A DNA stretch of 64,000 nucleotides from Anaerolineae bacterium (lineage in GTDB: Bacteria; Chloroflexota; Anaerolineae; Epilineales; Epilineaceae), in NCBI GenBank assembly GCA_038913135.1, contig JBCLES010000010.1:4298-68297 (forward strand). Direction: 5' to 3'. Within the stretch, counting starts at the first letter, position 1. Every line of letters starts with the position of its first letter. Positions 34,723 through 60,004 of this stretch are shown piece by piece. Both the position numbers and the translations under genes were made by a program. A model generated the notes under the pieces. That model had not been told where the DNA came from and made no database searches. It was given only the letters and a program-made list of their open reading frames with translations.

Positions 34723-36062
34723 TGCGCTTCGACGTCATCGGTTTCGGCTCGCGCGGCGACGCACAGCCCATGGCCGCATTGGTCCGCGGTCTTCGGACCG
34801 CCGGACATTCCGCCCGTCTTATCTCGCACTCGAACTTCGCGGATCTGGCCGAACTGCACGGGCTCGACTTCGCCCCGATCGACATCGATACGCGGTCGCT
34901 CGTCGAGAGCGAAGCGGGGCGCGAATGGTTGTCCGGCGGCACCGCTGCCAGACCATTTCTTACGCGCTTCTCGAAACTCATATCCGATGCGATGCATGTC
35001 ACGTTTCGTGACACTTGGTCCGCCATTAATGACGATCCGCCGGACGCTATCGTGGCGAACGGCTCGGCGATCCTGGCCGGGGCATCCATGGCCGAGCGGC
35101 TTGGCGTACCCTTCGCCCGTGCCGAACTCCAGCCGATGGAGTCTACCCGAGCTTTCCCGCCAACGTACGTCGCACCGGCACCTGCTTGGCTGCGATCGAT
35201 CCGTGGGGACGGCTTGTACAACCTTGCAGCCCACGCCTGGAGCGGTCTCACCGTATGGAAGGGAACCCGCGAAGCGACGAACTTGGCGCGCGCCGAGGTG
35301 CTCGGACTACCCCCGTGGAGCTGGACGGCGCCCTTGGGCGCAATGCAACGGCAGGGGTGGCCCATCCTGTGCGCTTTCAGCGAGGCGATCGTCCCCCGGC
35401 CCTTCGAGTGGAGCAAGAACGTCCATGTCACCGGATATTGGACGCTGCCGGCGTCGGATGCTTGGGCGCCGCCAGCAGAGCTTACAGCGTTTCTAGATGC
35501 CGGTCCGAAGCCGATCTGCGTAACCTTCGGCAGCATGCTTGGCCCCGACCCCCAAGCGACGACCGCTGCCGTGCTCGGTGCGATCGAAAGGGTTCAGCGG
35601 CGCGCTATCTTGGTCAGCGGCTGGGGCGGTTTGGCCCAGTCCGACTTGCCGCCGGGTGTCATCTGCATAGATTCGGCGCCGTTCGATTGGCTTTTCCAGC
35701 ATGTCTCAGCTGTCGTTCACCACGCCGGCGCCGGTACGACGGGCGCTGCGCTGCGCGCGGGTCGACCGAGCATCGCCGTTCCACTCTATGCCGACCAACC
35801 ATTCTGGGCGCGCCGAATCCACGAACTCGGCGCTGGCCCCGCCCCGCTCCCGATGCCGACCCTCAGCGCCGAGCCTCTGGCTCTGGCGATAGAGACGGCG
35901 ATCATGGACCCCAAGATCGCTGGTTCGGCGGCTATGCTCGGCGAGCGGATCAGGGCGGAAGATGGCGTTGGCGATGCGATACGCGTGCTCGAGGGGCTCA
36001 TCGAATTGGAGCCGGTATCGCCGGACGACGTCGAAAATGCTCAGCTATCCCCGAAGCCGTAG
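34722..36062 (+). CDS. GT1-family glycosyltransferase (MGT/UGT-like)
   Basis: MRFDVIGFGSRGDAQPMAALVRGL (N-terminal GsrGD.qP motif). The C-terminal HHAGAGTTGAALRAGRPSIAVPLYADQPFWA is like the UDP-glycosyltransferase signature. The start overlaps the upstream stop (TAATG). Confidence 0.8.
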   Translation: MRFDVIGFGSRGDAQPMAALVRGLRTAGHSARLISHSNFADLAELHGLDFAPIDIDTRSLVESEAGREWLSGGTAARPFLTRFSKLISDAMHVTFRDTWSAINDDPPDAIVANGSAILAGASMAERLGVPFARAELQPMESTRAFPPTYVAPAPAWLRSIRGDGLYNLAAHAWSGLTVWKGTREATNLARAEVLGLPPWSWTAPLGAMQRQGWPILCAFSEAIVPRPFEWSKNVHVTGYWTLPASDAWAPPAELTAFLDAGPKPICVTFGSMLGPDPQATTAAVLGAIERVQRRAILVSGWGGLAQSDLPPGVICIDSAPFDWLFQHVSAVVHHAGAGTTGAALRAGRPSIAVPLYADQPFWARRIHELGAGPAPLPMPTLSAEPLALAIETAIMDPKIAGSAAMLGERIRAEDGVGDAIRVLEGLIELEPVSPDDVENAQLSPKP

Positions 36063-37195
36063 AGCTCCGTTTCCGGATGGAAGTCTGACCAGGCAAACCA
36101 GAACACGCTCATCGCAGGAATCTGGTCGAGCGAACTGCCGGCCAGCGGGCCCTCAACGGCCACCCCCGTCCAAGCCATCCATAGCGAACCCGTCTCTTCG
36201 TCGACAACGTATCGTCCGCGGCCGCTGGCGCCTTCCGGTGGATCAGGGTCGCTCCGGAACGTGTAAGCCGTGCCGCCGACACGACGATCGAAGAGCACTG
36301 TCGACGAGACTTCGGGAGCGTGAATCGCCAGAACCGGCACGGCCCCGACCACGTCGTTCACCACGCGCCCTGTTTCGAGAACCTCCCACGGATAGGCCAC
36401 CGGCACGCCTTCGACGACGGCTGCGGTCACCATCGCCTTGGTCGGGAGTCGGCGATCCGGATTCGCTTCTCCGATCACACCGGCGTCAGGTCGTTCGAAG
36501 TAGCCCGCGTATGGATCGCGCCCATCCCAGCCCACGGTTTGCAATGCCTTGGACTCTGGATGAAGCTGCCGCCATTCGCCCCAACTCATTTGGGCATACG
36601 GCACCGGTACAAGCTCGGCGCCTTCGAGCGGTCCTTCGACCGCATGGCCCAGCATTTGGCTCCAATACGACTCAGTCTGGCGATCGTACATCACAAGTGC
36701 GTTCATGATCAGCTTGCCCGAGACGCCGAAGTCGAGCACTTCGCCCTTCACTTCAGGCCGGGCATACACGATGCCCGTGAAGCAAAGCGGTCACCAAGTT
36801 ACTGTGATTGCGCGGCCTCCGACGGAGTCGTTCACGATTTCATGGCGGCTTAGGAATGGGATGGAATAGGCACGAGCCTCGCCATCGAATGCCACACCGA
36901 GCACCAGCATCTCGTCGGGATAATTAGCGCGCGCGTCATCGCCCTCCCAGAACTTCGGTTCGTCGATAGCAGGGATCGCGTCGCGAGGTAGGATATCGAC
37001 CATCTCGTACTCCGGCACGTAGGCCGGCGCGGCTTCCAAGGCGGTTGATCGGTCGTCGGCCATTTGTTGCTCGGACTGACCGCATGCCGACGTCGACACA
37101 GCGACAGCGAAGGCGGCGGCGATCGCTATGGCCGAACGAGGGGATCGAGAGCGCAGCGGTAGCCGAATTGCAGAGATAAGCGGCTCAGCCTTCAT
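36041..37195 (-). CDS. DUF3179 lipoprotein with one in-frame TGA (36791..36793): candidate selenoprotein, or a nonsense pseudogene
   Basis: Track ORFs 36791..37207 and 36041..36769 share one frame and are separated by a single TGA. The joined sequence ...RHEIVNDSVGGRAITVTW-TGA-PLCFTGIVYARPEVKGEVLDFGVSGKLIMNALVMYDRQTESYWSQ is one continuous DUF3179 domain. The N-terminus has a lipoprotein-like signal (AAAFAVAVSTSAC). Confidence 0.7.
36746..36787 (-). promoter_or_regulatory. SECIS-like mRNA hairpin immediately 3' of the in-frame UGA
   Basis: mRNA nt +4..+45 after the UGA: lower stem CUUUGCUUCA/UGAAGUGAAG (10 bp, 2 G-U), a 3-nt bulge GCC on the 3' side, upper stem CGGGCAU/AUGCCCG (7 bp) and apical loop CGUGU that begins 21 nt after the UGA. 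Confidence 0.4.
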
Positions 37196-37325
37196 CGCGT
37201 CCACCACCGGCGTCGAAATTCATCCGTCGCACCCGTCCGCCATGGCGGCATACGCCTTCATCGCCGGCGTCGAAAGTCATCTGTCGCCCTCGCCTACCAT
37301 ATCGGCATACGCCTCCATCGGCGGA
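37188..37325. repeat. Tandem duplication (57- and 66-bp units, about 2.3 copies) spanning the gcvP 3' end and the DUF3179 start
   Basis: Read on the minus strand: ATGGAGGCGTATGCCGATATGG...GACAGATGACTTTCGACGCCGGCG (37318-37262) / ATGAAGGCGTATGCCGCCATGG...GACGGATGAATTTCGACGCCGGTGGTGGACGCG (37261-37196) / ATGAAGGCTGAG... (37195 onward, the DUF3179 start). Confidence 0.8.
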
Positions 37326-40195
37326 CACGAGCAGACGATATTGCGATCGCCGTAAGCGTTGTCGATACGCGCTACCGGCGGCCAGAACTTGTGGTCGTGA
37401 AGCCACGGAGCGGGGTATGCCGCCTCCGAGCGCGAGTAGGGATGGCGCCAATCGTCGGCCATCACCGCGCGTGCGGTGTGCGGAGCGTTCTTCAGTGGAT
37501 TGTCGACCCTATCCGCTGTTCCGCGCTCTATCGCCCGAATCTCCTTCCGGATGGCGATCATCGCGTTGCAGAAGCGATCCAGTTCGGCAAGGTTCTCGCT
37601 TTCAGTCGGCTCGATCATCAACGTTCCCGCGACCGGCCACGACATCGTCGGAGCATGGAAGCCGTAGTCCATGAGACGCTTGGCCACGTCATCCGGCTCG
37701 ATGTTCGCGGAATCCCTAAGCTGCCGCAAGTCGATGATGCATTCGTGTGCCACCCGATTGTTCGGACCCCGATAAAGGACCGGGTAATGGGGCGCCAACC
37801 GTTCGGCGATGTAGTTGGCGTTCAAAACCGCGATCTCGCTAGCCTTTTTGAGCCCATCGGGACCCATCATCGCGACATATGCATACGAAATCGGCAAGAT
37901 GCTCGCGCTGCCCCACGGCGCGGAAGTAACCGGTAGAATCGCCTGTTCGCCCCCCACATCGGAGACTACGCCGTGGCCAGGCAAATAAGGCGCCAAATGC
38001 GCCGCGACGCCGATCGGTCCCACGCCGGGTCCGCCGCCCCCGTGAGGGATGCAGAAGGTCTTGTGCAAGTTCAAGTGGCAGACATCGGCGCCGAGCTCGG
38101 CCGGACGGCACAGGCCGACCATCGCGTTCAAATTCGCGCCGTCCAAATAAACCTGACCGCCGCCGGCATGGACGGCATCGCAGATCGACTTGATGGTGGG
38201 CTCGAAGACGCCATGTGTTGACGGATACGTGATCATCAGAGCGGCGAGGCGGTCGCCTTGCAGGTCGATCTTGGCTTGCAGGTCGGCCATGTCAACGTTG
38301 CCGCCCTCATCCGTCGCGATCGGCACAACCCGCATACCGGCCATTACGGCGCTTGCGGGATTCGTCCCATGTGCCGACGTCGGGATTAGGCAAACGTCGC
38401 GTTGGTCGTCGCCGCGCGCACGATGATGCGCCCGGATGACAAGGAGCCCGGCGTACTCGCCCTGCGATCCGGCGTTCGGCTGCACCGAGAAGGCGTCAAA
38501 GCCGGTGATCTCAGCCAACCAAGCTTCGAGTCGATCGATCAGTGTTCGATATCCTTCCACGTCTTCGGCCGGCGCGAACGGGTGAATGTTCGAGAAGCCG
38601 GGCAAGGTGATCGAGAGCATCTCGGCGGCTGCGTTCAACTTCATCGTGCACGAGCCGAGCGGGATCATAGAAGTTGTAAGGCTAAGATCACGCGCCTCGA
38701 GCCGGCGCATGTAGCGTTGCATCTCGGTTTCGCTTCTGTAGGTGTTGAAAATCGGATGGGTGAGGTAATCCGAGGTGCGGGCGTGCGGACTAGGAATTGC
38801 CTCGTCGATGCTCGACGCCTCGGCATCCGGATCGAAATCCCCAGGAGCGCCTCCGAAGGCTTCGACTATGTCGCAGAGATCCGCCGCGGTCGTCGTCTCG
38901 TCTAGGCTGATCCCGACCCGCCCGTCGGCTAAAGACCGCAAGCCGATCCCCAAAGCGCGGGCCGCGGCGACCACTTCGTCACGGCTCCGACCGGTGGCCC
39001 CTGGATCGATCGTCAGAGTATCGAAGCGCGTTTCGTCACTCACTTCGCAGCCCAAGGCGTCGAGGCCGCGGCCTAGGACAAGCGCCATCCGACGCACTCG
39101 GCGCGCAATGTTCGCCAGCCCTTCAGGTCCGTGATAGACCGCATACATCGACGCGATTACCGCCAGCAGCACTTGCGCCGTGCAGATGTTGCTGGTGGCG
39201 CGATCTCGCCTTATATGCTGCTCGCGCGTCTGTAGAGCCAGCCGCAGCGCCGGCCGCTCGTCGGCGTCATGCGACACCCCGATCAGACGGCCGGGCAACT
39301 GTCGCTTGAATTCGTCACGCGCCGCCATGTAGCCTGCGTGCGGCCCGCCGAAGCCCATCGGGACTCCGAAGCGCTGCGTGCTCCCGACAGCAACATCCGC
39401 TCCGAAGTCGCCCGGCGGACGCAGGAGCGTCAGCGCGAGCGGATCCGCGGCAACGATGACATAGGCGCCGGCGGTGTGGGCGTCTTCACACAGCTCTTCG
39501 AAATTCCGGACGACGCCATCGGTCGATGGATATTGCACAAGCACCCCGAACACCGATGTGTCGATTCGCCAGTCCGCGGGATCGCCCACTTCGACCGCGA
39601 TGCCTAGGGGCTCCGCCCGGCCTCGCACGACGTCTATGGTCTGTGGGTGACAATCGGAGGCAACTAGGAAGCGCACCTCGCCTTGGGCACCGCTGACACG
39701 AAGACACATCATCATCGCCTCCGCCGCGGCGGTAGCCTCGTCCAGGACGGAGGCGTTAGCGATGTCTAGACCTGTCAGGTCCATTATCATCGTCTGAAAG
39801 TTGAGAAGCGCCTCGAGTCGGCCTTGGGCTATCTCCGCTTGGTAAGGGGTGTACTGGGTGTACCAGCCCGGATTCTCGAGGATGTTGCGCTGGATGACCG
39901 CCGGAAGATACGTGCCGTTGTAGCCCATTCCGATAAAGGAATGCATGAGCCGATTGCATCCGGCGAGTGCAGCCATCTCATCCAGAAGCTCAGCTTCGCT
40001 GACGGCGCGCGGCAGATCGAGCGGCCTTGACGTGCGGATCGCGGCAGGGATTACGGCCTCGATAAACGCATCGAGATCAGAGTAGCCGAGAAGTTCGAGC
40101 ATAGTTTTCAGCTCATCGCCGCGCGGTCCGATATGTCGATCCGGAAACGCCGACGGGGCGTCGAGACTCGTGGCGCGGGCGAAGGCTTCGATCAT
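37277..40195 (-). CDS. gcvP: Glycine dehydrogenase (decarboxylating), single-chain P protein
   Basis: 972 aa with [26 protein letters not shown] and [19 protein letters not shown] (PLP-Lys region). Full-length alpha-beta fused form. Confidence 0.95.
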
Positions 40196-44284: not shown

Positions 44285-44568
44285 CAAAGATGGCTGAAGA
44301 GTTCCGACGGCGGATGCCGTCACGGATCGCGACCTTCTGAAGAGAGTACGGGGATCGCGACCTTCTAAAAAGAGTTCGGGCCAGCGCCCGTAACCACAGC
44401 CCATCGGCGAGCACTGGCCCAGTAGCACTCTCACGTCTAACGCAGTCACCACGCGATCGTGGCAGACCCCCACACAGCCGCTGGCGTGTCGTGTGCTACG
44501 CACCGGAGTATAAGGACAGTGTTGCTTTTCGAGCATAAAGGTTAGATTAAGGTTAAGTACACGACGCG

Positions 44569-44597
44569 TTGACCTGACTGCTACCGCCGACTAGAAT
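44569..44597 (+). promoter_or_regulatory. Sigma-70-like promoter for the SRP RNA gene
   Basis: -35 TTGACC (44569-44574), 17-nt spacer, -10 TAGAAT (44592-44597). An A/T-rich stretch (ataaaggttagattaaggttaagt) lies immediately upstream. Confidence 0.5.
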
Positions 44598-44623
44598 CCC
44601 CAGGCCATCCTTCTAGGTTGCTT

Positions 44624-44762
44624 GACGCCGGCGGCGGTGGCCCAGCCAGGGTCCTGCGCGGCGGAGCCCTTCGAACCGCGTCAGGTCCGGAAGGAAGCAG
44701 CGCTAAGGAGATGTTTCCGGGCGCCGCAGGGGTGCCTTGGCTGTGCCTCCTACGCCGGCGTC
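44624..44762 (+). ncRNA. ffs: Signal recognition particle RNA (4.5S/small SRP RNA type)
   Basis: Contains the invariant domain IV sequence GTCAGGTCCGGAAGGAAGCAGC (44679-44700). The flanks pair as a long helix (GACGCCGGCG...CGCCGGCGTC and GCCAGGG...CCTTGGC). The ends are approximate; transcription may start near 44603. Confidence 0.8.
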
Positions 44763-44806
44763 TGTATTTACTCGACTCGTGCACATCGCTGAGAGCGCAA
44801 ACGCGC

Positions 44807-46471
44807 ATGCCCGAACGTCGGCCATCAGTGCCCAACACGATTGGGGTCCGACGTCGAGCGACTGTGCTCGGCCCTACGAGTCTGTCTCGCTTTCCCGAGT
44901 TCTGGTCGAACACGGTGCGTATCATTGCGGCCGCGGTCGGTTTGGCCGCCGCTCTGGAGTTCGCCGCCGTACCGGTGACGCTCCAAGTCGATGGGGCTGA
45001 GCGCTCCATGGTGACACGGGTCGGAACCGTCGGCGCTCTTCTCGCCGAGGCCATGGTGGACGTCGAGCGCGGTGACCTAGTCTCGCCGCCGCCTTCGAGC
45101 CACCTCCGGCGCGGGGAAACCGTGGTGGTGGAACGCGCTAGGCTGGTCCGCATAAATGTTGAAGGTGACGTCCGCTCGATTCGTACGCACGCGATCACAC
45201 CCCTCGGAATGCTGCATGCGGCCGGAGTCAGTGTCGATCACGATGATCGCGTGGCCGTGGGCGGTCAGGGCTGGCCGGCAGATCGACCGCTCTGGACCAC
45301 TTCCGCTGCCGGCAAGACCGAACAAGGCAACGACGCCGAACGGTCGCTTGTAGCCTCGTCCCGAGCCGTGGCCGCCGATCGGTCCCGTCACGGTACAGGC
45401 GTCGCGACGCTGGCTGACGCTTTTGAAGTTGTCCCGAAGACGCGCCGGTCGGAGAATCAGTCGCCGTCGGACTTCATAGACGGCACCGACTCGGAAGTGA
45501 TCGTTCACATCGACATTCTTCGACCAGCACCAATCACCGTGGTTGAGGACGGGATCCCGATTGCGATCATGCTTACGGGGCGGACGGTCGGAGAGTCATT
45601 GGCGGCAGCTGGTCTGCACCTCTGGAACGAAGACGTGCTCTTTCCTAGCTCGGAGACCCTGCTCTCTCGAACCTCGCGCGTCTCGATCCAGCGGGCGATT
45701 CCGTTCACGGTCAGCTCCGATGGCGAGAACCGATCGGTGCGAGCCGTTGCGGACACGGTTAGCGAAGCGCTGGCCATCGCTGGCGAAACGCTCGTCGGGC
45801 GCGATTACTCGATCCCGCCCTCCGATACGGCTCTGCGCTCCGGGATTGAAGTTCAAGTGGTTCGCGTCGTCGAGGACTTCCTGGTACAGCAAGTCGATGT
45901 GCCATTCGGCACCGAAACGGAGGCCGACTGGGGACTACCCCTCGACGAAAAGCGTGTCTTGCGTGAAGGCGAACCAGGGTCGAAGACGCAGCGCATTCGG
46001 ATCGTTTACGAGGACGGCGAGGAGATCAGCCGCGATCTCATAGAGGAGATGTTGGATCGAGAACCTGTCGCTCAGCGCATCGCTTATGGGACGCGCATCG
46101 ATTGGAACACCGTTCAGACCGAAGCGGGCCCCAAGCGCTATTGGCGCAAGTTGAGGGTATATGCCACCAGCTACAGCGCTTCCCGCGCCGGGACGGCTCC
46201 ATCGGCGCCATGGTACGGCCTGACGCGCCTGGGTTGGCCGATGCGAAAAGGCATCATCGCAGTCGATCCGCGGATCATCCCGCTCAGGACTGAGATGTAC
46301 GTGCCCGAATACGGCCTCGGAGTCGCGGGCGACACGGGCGGCGGGCTCAAGCAGTACCATATCGACCTAGGCTACGATGACGACAACTATCAGAGCTGGC
46401 ACTGGTGGGTCGACGCCTACTTGCTCGAACCTCTGCCGCCCGAGGGCTCGATCCCCTGGATCTTGCCGTGA
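44807..46471 (+). CDS. YabE/RpfB-like cell-wall protein (DUF348 repeats, G5 domain, C-terminal 3D domain)
   Basis: N-terminal TM segment. DUF348-like VTLQVDGAERSMVTRVGTVGALLAEA. G5-like VPFGTETEADWGLPLDEKRVLREGEPGSKTQRIRIVYEDGEEISR. 3D domain YATSYSASRAG...GIIAVDPRIIPLRTEMYVPEYGLGVAGDTGGGLKQYHIDL. The position next to rsmA matches Bacillus yabE-ksgA. The part of the track ORF upstream of 44807 overlaps ffs. Confidence 0.75.
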   Translation: MPERRPSVPNTIGVRRRATVLGPTSLSRFPEFWSNTVRIIAAAVGLAAALEFAAVPVTLQVDGAERSMVTRVGTVGALLAEAMVDVERGDLVSPPPSSHLRRGETVVVERARLVRINVEGDVRSIRTHAITPLGMLHAAGVSVDHDDRVAVGGQGWPADRPLWTTSAAGKTEQGNDAERSLVASSRAVAADRSRHGTGVATLADAFEVVPKTRRSENQSPSDFIDGTDSEVIVHIDILRPAPITVVEDGIPIAIMLTGRTVGESLAAAGLHLWNEDVLFPSSETLLSRTSRVSIQRAIPFTVSSDGENRSVRAVADTVSEALAIAGETLVGRDYSIPPSDTALRSGIEVQVVRVVEDFLVQQVDVPFGTETEADWGLPLDEKRVLREGEPGSKTQRIRIVYEDGEEISRDLIEEMLDREPVAQRIAYGTRIDWNTVQTEAGPKRYWRKLRVYATSYSASRAGTAPSAPWYGLTRLGWPMRKGIIAVDPRIIPLRTEMYVPEYGLGVAGDTGGGLKQYHIDLGYDDDNYQSWHWWVDAYLLEPLPPEGSIPWILP

Positions 46472-56984: not shown

Positions 56985-57710
56985 TCACGCCCTGCGCGCG
57001 AAGCGTCCACCGCCCCGCCGGCCGGATTTCAATACCTGGGCGGGCGGGCGCTCCAGCAACAGCGCCCACCATTCGGGCTCATAGTCGCGCATCTTCATCT
57101 TCTTGCCGCTTTGAAGCGCGGAAAGGTTGGTTTCGATCCCCTCATCGGCGGGCAATATCTTTTGGGCTCGCTTGAGCACCTCAATCGCTTCTTCAGTGTG
57201 CCGACGCTTCCACAAGCACCACGCATAGGCCGCCCAGAGCATACCCTCCTTCTTGTTGCTCTTCACCGCCTTCTCGAAGACCTTCCGCATCTCGTCGTCG
57301 TCCTTGCGGCGATAGTGGTACGCTCCCAGCATCGCTTTCGCGTACCAGTTCTTGGGGATGGTCTTCTCCAAGTACGGTCGCGCGGCTTCAGGGTCCTGCT
57401 TGTGGGCGTAAAGGATGGTCCCGATCTGACCGTCGATCGCCAGACCGGCCGTCGGTTGCCAGCGATCTAGAGCGCGAAGATCCTCCAGGATCTTTATCGC
57501 GACATCCGGCTTCTGCGCGCCAAGCGCGCCCTCGACGTCCGGCATACGCGCTTCGAGCTTCTTGTTGGTGTAATAGGCCATTCCGACAAAGCTTGCCATG
57601 CCGGCTGTAAAGCCCGCAAGCCCGCTCCAAATCCAGCTGATATCGAAAGGAAAATAGAGCCCCGAGAAGACTGCAATTGCCAGGGCTAGGCTGATAAGGA
57701 CGGCGTACAT
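56985..57710 (-). CDS. Membrane-anchored TPR-like protein, function unknown
   Basis: Two N-terminal TM helices (MYAVLISLALAIAVFSGLYF, GLAGFTAGMASFVGMAYY) followed by helical-repeat-like sequence (AKAMLGAYHYRRKDDDEMRKVFEKAVKSNKKEGMLWAAYAWCLW). Confidence 0.5.
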   Translation of the reverse strand: MYAVLISLALAIAVFSGLYFPFDISWIWSGLAGFTAGMASFVGMAYYTNKKLEARMPDVEGALGAQKPDVAIKILEDLRALDRWQPTAGLAIDGQIGTILYAHKQDPEAARPYLEKTIPKNWYAKAMLGAYHYRRKDDDEMRKVFEKAVKSNKKEGMLWAAYAWCLWKRRHTEEAIEVLKRAQKILPADEGIETNLSALQSGKKMKMRDYEPEWWALLLERPPAQVLKSGRRGGGRFARRA

Positions 57711-58657: not shown

Positions 58658-59809
58658 CTAGCGGGCGTCAATCGAGACGAAGGGTCGGTTAGTCGGCCCG
58701 GTATATTCGGCACGCGGGCGGATCAATCGATTGTCGGCATATTGTTCGAGAAGGTGTGCCGTCCAACCGGCCACCCGACTCACGGCGAAAAGTGGTGTGA
58801 ACTGATCGGACGGGACTCCGGCCGCGTGAAGCACCGCCGCCGAATAGAAGTCGACGTTCGGATAGAGCATGAGTTCGGGCCGGTTCTTTGCGAAGAAGTC
58901 GACCGCTGTGTCAGCAACCGCAAGCGCGATGTCATGGTAGAGCCTATCGCCGGACTCTTCGGCCTGAGCTTCGCTCATTCGGCGAAGGATGGCCGCGCGG
59001 GGATCGGTCGTTTTGTAGACCCGATGGCCGATACCCATGATCCGCTCTTTCTTCTCGATCTTGTCGAGCACCCATGCTTCGGCCGCGTCGACCGATCCGA
59101 TCGATTCCAGCATTTCCATAACCCGCTCGTTGGCGCCGCCATGGAGCGGCCCCTTTAGCGTTCCGATGGCGGAAGTGATCGCGGAATACGGATCGGACTT
59201 GGTCGCAGCCGTGACCCTGGCCGAGAACGTACTCGCGTTGAAGCCGTGGTCGGCGAGCAGCACAAGGTAGGTATCCAGCGCGCGCACCGCGGCCGGACCG
59301 GCTTCAGTTCCGTTCAGCATGAAAAGCATGTTGGCCGAATGGCCGAGATCGTCGCGCGGTGGAATGGGCGATTTGTCCTTACGAACGCGCTCGAAGACAG
59401 CTGTGATAGTCGGGATGCGTGCGACTATGCGCAGCAAAGCGCGGCGTCGCGCCGCCTCGTCGTCCGGCGCCAGCTCAGCGTCAGGATCGAAAGCCCCGAG
59501 TGCGCTGACCCCGGTTCGGAGGGCAGTCATCGGGTGTGTGTCGGCCGGGAGCGCCCTCAACACGCCGTGCACCGCATCCGGAATCTCGCGCTCCGCGGCT
59601 AGCGCGGAAGTGATGATCGCCAGCTCTCCTCGCGTCGGCAATTCGCCTTCCCACAGGAGCCAGATGACTTCTTCGAAAGTCGCGTGCCCGGCGAGGTCCT
59701 CGATCGGGAAGCCGGAGTATGAAAGCCGACCCTCGAGACCTTCCACCTTGCTCTTCTTCGACTCCGCGACAACGACGTTCTCCAGCCCGCGGTTGGTCAC
59801 GGCCGGCAT
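58658..59809 (-). CDS. gltA: Citrate synthase (about 383 aa, small type)
   Basis: GPLHGGANE, GHRVYKTTDPRA and NVDFYSA motifs. The ATG at 59809 was chosen (MPAVTNRGLENVVVAES). Confidence 0.9.
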   Translation of the reverse strand: MPAVTNRGLENVVVAESKKSKVEGLEGRLSYSGFPIEDLAGHATFEEVIWLLWEGELPTRGELAIITSALAAEREIPDAVHGVLRALPADTHPMTALRTGVSALGAFDPDAELAPDDEAARRRALLRIVARIPTITAVFERVRKDKSPIPPRDDLGHSANMLFMLNGTEAGPAAVRALDTYLVLLADHGFNASTFSARVTAATKSDPYSAITSAIGTLKGPLHGGANERVMEMLESIGSVDAAEAWVLDKIEKKERIMGIGHRVYKTTDPRAAILRRMSEAQAEESGDRLYHDIALAVADTAVDFFAKNRPELMLYPNVDFYSAAVLHAAGVPSDQFTPLFAVSRVAGWTAHLLEQYADNRLIRPRAEYTGPTNRPFVSIDAR

Positions 59810-60004
59810 GTTTCCTCCAAGAATGATTGATCGAATCCGGGCTAGTCTCCCCGGGGTGCCACCGAGCCTGATCGACTGCGCGTGGCTCCCGAACGGTGGC
59901 CCGAAGCGTATGATAGTATACGGGCCGGCCGCGGTCTGGCAATCGAGGCAACGGCGGAGCCTAACGTCGCGGCGCGCCGACTTCATGGCCGAGAGGGTAT
60001 CAGC

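Follow-up and report, generated by a model that had tools for sequence, protein, structure and literature searches.

Does an in-frame TGA within a DUF3179 gene end its translation, or is it read as an amino acid? The question is raised by a locus in a stretch of 64,000 nucleotides (nt; 64 kb, hereafter the window) of contig JBCLES010000010.1 from an Anaerolineae bacterium (assembly GCA_038913135.1), in which two minus-strand open reading frames (ORFs), 36791..37207 and 36041..36769, lie in the same frame and are separated by nothing but a TGA at 36791-36793. We conclude, with a probability of roughly 92%, that the two form one gene encoding one DUF3179 protein, and that codon 135 of this gene, a UGA, specifies selenocysteine (Sec). 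The features on which this reading is built are listed in Table 1.

When the stop is translated through, the product reads ...GGRAITVTW-[TGA]-PLCFTGIVYARPEVKG... (over a longer span, ...VNDSVGGRAITVTW-[TGA]-PLCFTGIVYARPEVKGEVLDFGVSGKL...). With cysteine (Cys) substituted at the TGA, a single match to PF11376 (DUF3179) runs across it and takes in profile positions 1-292 of 292 (E = 1.4e-82; 277.8 bits vs a cut-off of 27); because this one match covers the whole profile, we regard the two ORFs as one gene rather than two, which agrees with the initial annotation of the locus, where they had been read as a single frame interrupted only by the TGA. From the likely start codon, the TGA is codon 135 and the second Cys of the motif discussed below is codon 138.

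We searched 5.8 billion proteins for homologues and aligned the best 120 matches. Almost all full-length homologues contain the motif T-(W/Y)-C-P-L-C; the first Cys of this motif is the residue opposite the TGA, as the initial annotation had suggested for the family, and the substitution gives U-P-L-C. C135 is nearly invariant in the homologues and C138 is invariant, so that the TGA column forms the Sec/Cys pair typical of bacterial selenoprotein genes. Among the same 120 matches, 22 are fragments of about 240 residues, 20 of which begin within one residue of a Val located eight residues past the TGA column (P0081 begins further downstream than the other C-terminal fragments); this is the pattern expected if gene callers end one ORF at the TGA and begin another at the following GTG or ATG. 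The database entry for the gene in the window (P0001) is likewise the 242-residue C-terminal piece only. Four of the fragments are encoded on contigs that we examined (L001-L005; identity to the window 50-71%): TGA occupies this column in every one, with a DUF3179 piece in frame upstream of it, and L001 also shares with the window the gene order Kelch, LOG-like, gcvP, DUF3179, GT28.

The TGA is conserved far beyond these contigs. In a scan of GTDB with one genome per species, the best 80 loci returned comprised 78 with TGA and two with TGT at the column, nearly all of them from metagenome-assembled genomes (MAGs) of Chloroflexota (Anaerolineae, Dehalococcoidia, Caldilineae, and others). When metagenomes were scanned with Cys forms as seeds, further TGA and Cys types were found, with TGA in 32 of the 40 loci scored at first. 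Pooled, all loci comprise 108 distinct TGA forms and 48 distinct Cys forms; the TGA forms come from independent Chloroflexota MAGs and metagenomes and reach down to about 45% protein identity. In a neighbour-joining tree (midpoint-rooted, without support values), all 107 TGA forms fall inside one clade of 112 tips, whose remaining members are three Cys forms, a Ser form, and a Gly form; a further 44 Cys forms are placed outside it. The coding sequence on both sides of the TGA is conserved along with it, as is expected of a bacterial selenoprotein gene. In a comparison with the 71%-identical L001 orthologue, the ratio of nonsynonymous to synonymous substitution rates (dN/dS) was 0.12 for the part upstream of the TGA and 0.10 for the part downstream (approximate values, with dS near saturation), so both halves of the gene are under purifying selection. 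Seven codons, P-L-C-F-T-G-I, separate the TGA from the next codon that could serve as a start: columns 4, 5, 7, 8, 10, 11, and 13 of the alignment (A2) are invariant, and the third-position columns 6, 9, 12, and 15 vary. Because the amino acids are kept while the third positions change synonymously, we conclude that these codons are translated, and since only third positions vary in them, that the ribosome reads through the TGA.

Two observations on the distribution of the gene may be added here. One contig labelled Cellvibrionaceae (Gammaproteobacteria; L068) carries a TGA-type DUF3179 gene nearly identical to those of Anaerolineae MAGs, which is probably a binning error rather than a proteobacterial occurrence. 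Some genomes contain two DUF3179 paralogues within 20 kb, either one TGA and one Cys form (L054) or two Cys forms (L079).

Directly downstream of the TGA, the initial annotation had described an interrupted hairpin of 17 base pairs (bp). With nt numbered after the U of the UGA, pairing joins nt 7-16 to nt 39-48 and nt 17-23 to nt 29-35, leaving the loop CGUGU (nt 24-28) and a 3′ bulge GCC. The hairpin (nt 7-48) has a minimum free energy of -24.3 kcal/mol (z = -2.9), and 3 of 200 shuffled sequences fold at least as well; the fold energy alone is only moderately unusual, and the evidential weight comes from sequence comparison. That comparison upholds the hairpin as described, and at a distance from the UGA like that of a selenocysteine insertion sequence (SECIS), in its upper part only: the 7-bp stem with its 5-nt loop, CGGGCAU-CGUGU-AUGCCCG, which begins 13 nt after the UGA, is the sole portion kept and covarying across sequences, and the consensus structure of the seven closest orthologues retains the upper stem and not the lower stem of 10 bp.

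In 75 distinct sequences, 91% of the alignment cells are paired when three flanking pairs are counted, and the seven stem pairs are almost always formed. Three of these pairs show the compensatory changes between orthologues that the initial annotation had said to look for: pair 18:34 changes from GC to UA in six sequences, pair 20:32 from GC to CG in six, and pair 21:31 from CG to AU, UA, or GU in 21. None of 500 shuffles reached the observed covariation score, and slid registers scored far lower. At pair 18:34 a synonymous change of Thr (ACG to ACU) is coupled in alignment A2 with a synonymous change of Arg (CGN to AGA), and because it is synonymous on both sides, this change can have been selected at the RNA level only; at pair 21:31 a synonymous change of Gly (GGC to GGA) is matched by a replacement of Ala with Ser (GCC to UCC). 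The stem is also specific to the TGA forms: 94 of the 108 have 7/7 stem pairs and another 11 have 6/7, in contrast to 1-5 of the seven pairs (median 3) in the Cys forms (n = 48). Where the TGA forms have Y-A/S/G-R, the Cys forms mostly have Y-D-R; since an Asp codon (GAY) would break the stem, the TGA forms need an Ala, Ser, or Gly codon at this position.

Two loci nested within the TGA clade, L087 (P0065) and L088 (P0049), carry a Ser (TCA) or Gly (GGA) codon in place of that for Sec, in each case one base from TGA, with the hairpin partly decayed (5/7 pairs in each). They may represent lineages that lost Sec, or base-call errors. Similar substitutions at this column are known at the protein level in P0027 (Ser) and P0066 (Arg).

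The hairpin resembles the SelB-binding SECIS of Escherichia coli fdhF in being a stem-loop located inside the coding region immediately 3′ of the UGA, and in having a small apical loop that contains G and U. It differs in that the two share no sequence similarity, the spacer is 13 nt as against 11 nt in fdhF, the loop is CGUGU as against GGUC, and its conserved 7-bp stem shows no evident bulged U. The bSECISearch rule places the apical loop of a SECIS 16-37 nt from the UGA, a range within which the loop found here lies. Bacterial SECIS elements are described by Zhang and Gladyshev (2007; PMC1976440) as stem-loops just downstream of the UGA with an apical loop that has conserved guanosines. With G residues in its loop, whose first nt is the 21st after the UGA, the hairpin fits this picture.

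A rival reading is that the gene is genuinely split, with a 134-residue exported N-terminal fragment, a separate 242-residue C-terminal part made from the GTG at 36769, and a hairpin that serves reinitiation or mRNA stability. Many orthologues do have a GTG or ATG eight codons past the TGA, which is where gene callers start, but this codon is that of the conserved Val of G-I-V-Y in the Cys forms too and so gives no evidence of a start. The codons P-L-C-F-T-G-I, which would be untranslated in a split gene, are conserved as protein with synonymous variation; the C-terminal piece would lose the export signal that 76 of 77 orthologues have; the CxxC motif would be halved; and the sequence can be explained without any Shine-Dalgarno-like conservation. 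We therefore consider a split gene very improbable.

Decoding of the UGA as Sec would require the selenocysteine machinery, and genes for it occur on contigs of relatives that carry the TGA form. We found selD (TIGR00476, 343 bits) 1.2 kb from the TGA-type DUF3179 gene of a Chloroflexia MAG (L005, the same locus as L012); another selD, 75% identical to that copy, on a second TGA-form contig (L048); selB on a third (L081; TIGR00475, 299 bits vs a cut-off of 242); and tRNA-Sec on a fourth (L027; predicted by ARAGORN and matched by RF01852 at 77 bits). No selA was seen on the relatives' TGA-form contigs. The selD gene of L005 (11220-12333, minus strand) has an in-frame TGA of its own at the active site (ECAG-TGA-ASK), and because the TGA is at the active-site position, this SelD would itself be a selenoprotein. 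A tRNA-Cys gene adjoins this selD, and a class-V aminotransferase gene is located just upstream of DUF3179 on the same contig. The selD frame contains a 1-nt shift within a GCGCGCGC run, and the H+-pyrophosphatase gene of this contig (5003-7028, minus strand) is split into two ORFs by a frameshift, which is probably a long-read assembly error; together the two shifts suggest indel errors in the long-read assembly. We rejected the split H+-pyrophosphatase as a further Sec gene, since its junction is a frameshift and not an in-frame TGA.

In the window itself TGA is the commonest ordinary stop, ending 24 of the 37 long ORFs, including gcvP and the DUF3179 gene itself; a genome-wide reassignment of TGA is rejected on this ground. 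Scanning the window for other in-frame TGA codons between coding-like segments gave no second convincing candidate; a site at 56985 was rejected because it separates two adjacent genes in one frame.

These results also bear on whether the UGA is recoded in some other way, with a near-cognate tRNA (Trp, Cys, or Arg) reading through it under stimulation from the hairpin, or with another amino acid inserted at this site. Downstream structures can stimulate read-through, and the rare relatives with Ser (TCA) or Gly (GGA) indicate that the column tolerates other residues in some lineages. Against this stand the column itself, which is Cys in nearly all non-TGA homologues and forms a classic Sec/Cys pair, the presence of selD, selB, and tRNA-Sec on the contigs of TGA-form relatives, a hairpin whose geometry and G-containing loop fit a SECIS, and the role of TGA as the main terminator in the window; we give this alternative as little weight as the split gene. 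Least probable of all is a pseudogene or assembly error, a recent TGC/TGT to TGA change or a miscalled base in a Cys-type gene, which the initial annotation had kept as an alternative: TGA is one base from TGC or TGT, databases do split the gene into two ORFs, and the window is without Sec machinery, but a TGA at one column in 108 distinct sequences from independent assemblies and a single clade, purifying selection on both halves (dN/dS about 0.1 on each side), and a covarying hairpin specific to the TGA forms make this alternative, on the comparative data, effectively refuted.

Several points weigh against decoding as Sec. The window contains no selA, selB, selD, or tRNA-Sec, as judged by ARAGORN, by Pfam scans of 20 ORFs, and by tblastn with E. 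coli SelA and SelB and a Chloroflexota SelD (it contains no tRNA genes at all), and we infer the Sec capability of the source organism from its relatives. A permissive Rfam search of the region surrounding the TGA matched the hairpin to no family, and conservation of the hairpin is partly confounded with that of the peptide it encodes, T-G-I-V-Y-A-R. In the searchable literature there is nothing on DUF3179 beyond rows in family tables, and no report of selenium incorporation. Finally, what we say of function comes from simple heuristics and from fold matches that all have E > 0.001.

Taken together, we propose the following for the minus-strand gene. It would encode one protein of 384 residues, with the UGA at codon 135 read as Sec during translation. 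The hairpin 13 nt downstream would act as a bacterial SECIS and recruit SelB-GTP-Sec-tRNASec to the ribosome, and the same UGA codon, where it has no such hairpin, terminates the DUF3179 gene and most other genes in the window. The N-terminal signal or lipoprotein-like sequence, followed by a linker, would leave the product tethered outside the cytoplasmic membrane, with Sec135-Pro-Leu-Cys138 at a β-hairpin turn of a non-thioredoxin, weakly Rieske-like β domain. There, Sec and Cys could form a redox-active selenenylsulfide or a metal-binding site.

Table 1. Features of the DUF3179 locus in the window.
Feature	Coordinates	Strand	Details
Putative DUF3179 selenoprotein gene, complete	36041..37195	minus	Likely start ATG 37195-37193; 384 sense codons including the putative Sec135; terminal TGA 36043-36041
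In-frame TGA (UGA), putative Sec codon	36791..36793	minus	Residue 135, first position of U-P-L-C
Seven codons P-L-C-F-T-G-I, from the TGA to the first possible downstream start (GTG 36769-36767)	36770..36790	minus	Translated
Putative N-terminal export signal, lipoprotein-like	37082..37195	minus	Arg-rich n-region, hydrophobic stretch AIAIAAAFAVAV, then STSA-C38
Full hairpin	36746..36787	minus	Lower 10-bp stem (36778-36787 with 36746-36755) and GCC bulge specific to the window sequence
Conserved SECIS-like core	36759..36777	minus	7-bp stem CGGGCAU/AUGCCCG, loop CGUGU (36766-36770)

The N-terminus of the predicted protein, MKAEPLISAIRLPLRSRSPRSAIAIAAAFAVAVSTSAC, resembles a lipoprotein signal. 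Among the TGA-form orthologues, 76 of 77 have an N-terminal hydrophobic 12-mer, and 42 of 77 have a lipobox-like motif ending in Cys (signal and lipobox calls were made with simple sequence heuristics rather than a dedicated predictor). The DUF3179 protein is thus probably exported and tethered to the membrane outside the cytoplasm. A sequence search of the PDB found no solved relative. We modelled the fold with AlphaFold2 on P0005, the closest full-length Cys homologue (predicted local distance difference test, pLDDT, 86.8). The model is almost all β, and CPLC is located at the turn between two strands (a β-hairpin turn). A fold search of the PDB with this model gave weak matches, almost all of them to Rieske-type ferredoxin domains (best E = 0.009, none at or below 0.001); the Rieske-like matches have template modelling scores (TM-scores) on the target of 0.5-0.63 and E = 0.009-0.1. 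There was no thioredoxin-like fold among the 50 PDB matches listed.

The initial annotation had called U-P-L-C the classic UxxC arrangement of redox selenoproteins, and the predicted fold gives no backing for this. The U-x-x-C spacing does recur in UxxC selenoproteins with a thioredoxin fold (DsbA-like, thiol-disulfide isomerase-like, and others), of which several are extracytoplasmic; in that fold the CxxC or UxxC is at the N-terminus of helix α1, whereas the P0005 model puts it at a β-hairpin turn and weakly resembles Rieske-type β domains instead. The likeness of the model to the Rieske-type [2Fe-2S] ferredoxin fold is a weak structural similarity at the level of the domain together with the position of CPxC at a β-hairpin turn. 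In Rieske domains the cluster ligands follow the pattern CxH-x(15-17)-CxxH, and the spacing His118-x16-Cys/Sec135-x2-Cys138 of the DUF3179 family recalls it. The family differs from Rieske domains in that the full ligand set CxH...CxxH is absent and only one His and two Cys/Sec residues (His118, Cys/Sec135, and Cys138) are conserved. On the basis of the model we favour, with low confidence, a non-thioredoxin scaffold bearing a site that binds metal or forms a selenenylsulfide.

Clustering of neighbouring genes over about 75 loci revealed no conserved partner (the best real cluster was present in 11 loci); because no partner gene is conserved across these loci, the genomic context gives no clue to function. 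The window contains genes for a catalase (1331-2785), a citrate synthase (58658-59986), and a glycine dehydrogenase (GcvP; 37277-40195), which suggests an aerobic or aerotolerant lifestyle. This is noteworthy in that, according to the 2026 AEM review (PMC13188914), selenoproteins are rarely retained by aerobic bacteria. A tandem repeat of 57 nt (2.3 copies, 79% matches) occupies 37196-37324, covering the 3′ end of gcvP (stop at 37277) and the entire intergenic region up to the base that precedes the DUF3179 start codon; the spacer between the two genes, and possibly also the start region of DUF3179, seem to derive from a duplicated gcvP tail. Elsewhere in the window, a large bacterial signal recognition particle (SRP) RNA is located at 44555-44769 (RF01854, 94.8 bits) and is the sole Rfam match at the gathering threshold. 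An ORF with DUF348, G5, and 3D domains (Rpf-like; 44618..46471) overlaps it, and because of this overlap the true start of that gene must be further downstream.

DUF3179 had been taken in the initial annotation for a new selenoprotein family, and in this it was mistaken. The tables of prokaryotic selenoprotein families in Zhang et al. (2022; PMC9312934) and in the 2026 AEM review (PMC13188914) both contain the entry "DUF3179 domain-containing protein, pfam11376, UxxC/T" and credit the family to Zhang and Gladyshev (2007, NAR 35:4952; PMC1976440). That paper reports new families with Sec/Cys pairs and downstream stem-loops and does not use the DUF name. The catalogued examples are MBW1804167.1 and MDJ0986319.1; compared through its table entry, the family agrees with the gene in the window in its PF11376 domain, in Sec as the first residue of U-x-x-C (U135-P-L-C138 here) where the Cys homologues have C-x-x-C, and in a predicted downstream stem-loop. 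The entry does not describe a Chloroflexota clade of this size and coherence, a protein of exported or lipoprotein type, or the conserved hairpin reported here. The Cys-type DUF3179 proteins (T-Y-C-P-L-C ... Y-D-R) share the whole-length domain at 37-50% identity, the invariant P136 and C138, the G-V-S-G motifs, and N-terminal signal sequences; their genes differ from the TGA forms in having TGT or TGC for TGA, no hairpin, and usually Asp at the Ala/Ser/Gly position. NCBIfam holds no model for the DUF3179 family.

The gene is very likely a genuine, mis-annotated, and previously unlisted DUF3179 selenoprotein gene within an already known family, and it reveals neither a new recoding mechanism nor a new selenoprotein family. 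What is added here is the size and coherence of the Chloroflexota TGA clade, a minimal conserved SECIS core with covariation, a probable extracytoplasmic location, and a predicted fold with no thioredoxin-like match. A bolder proposal, which we hold tentatively and consider unlikely as a whole, is that the TGA-type clade is confined or nearly confined to Chloroflexota and long kept there, in hosts that are at least partly aerobic (to judge from the catalase and citrate synthase genes of the window), that its membrane-tethered, Rieske-like protein would have a Sec135/Cys138/His118 metal or redox site new for selenoproteins, and that its SECIS would dictate Ala, Ser, or Gly in place of Asp. The finding matters mainly in practice: at the TGA, gene callers divide this gene and over 100 relatives in two, and because they do so and NCBIfam has no model, the selenoproteomes of Chloroflexota are under-counted and DUF3179 is mis-annotated. 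For the family, the clade provides a clean example of a SECIS hairpin that constrains the peptide it encodes, and the hairpin could serve to mark those Chloroflexota that use Sec.

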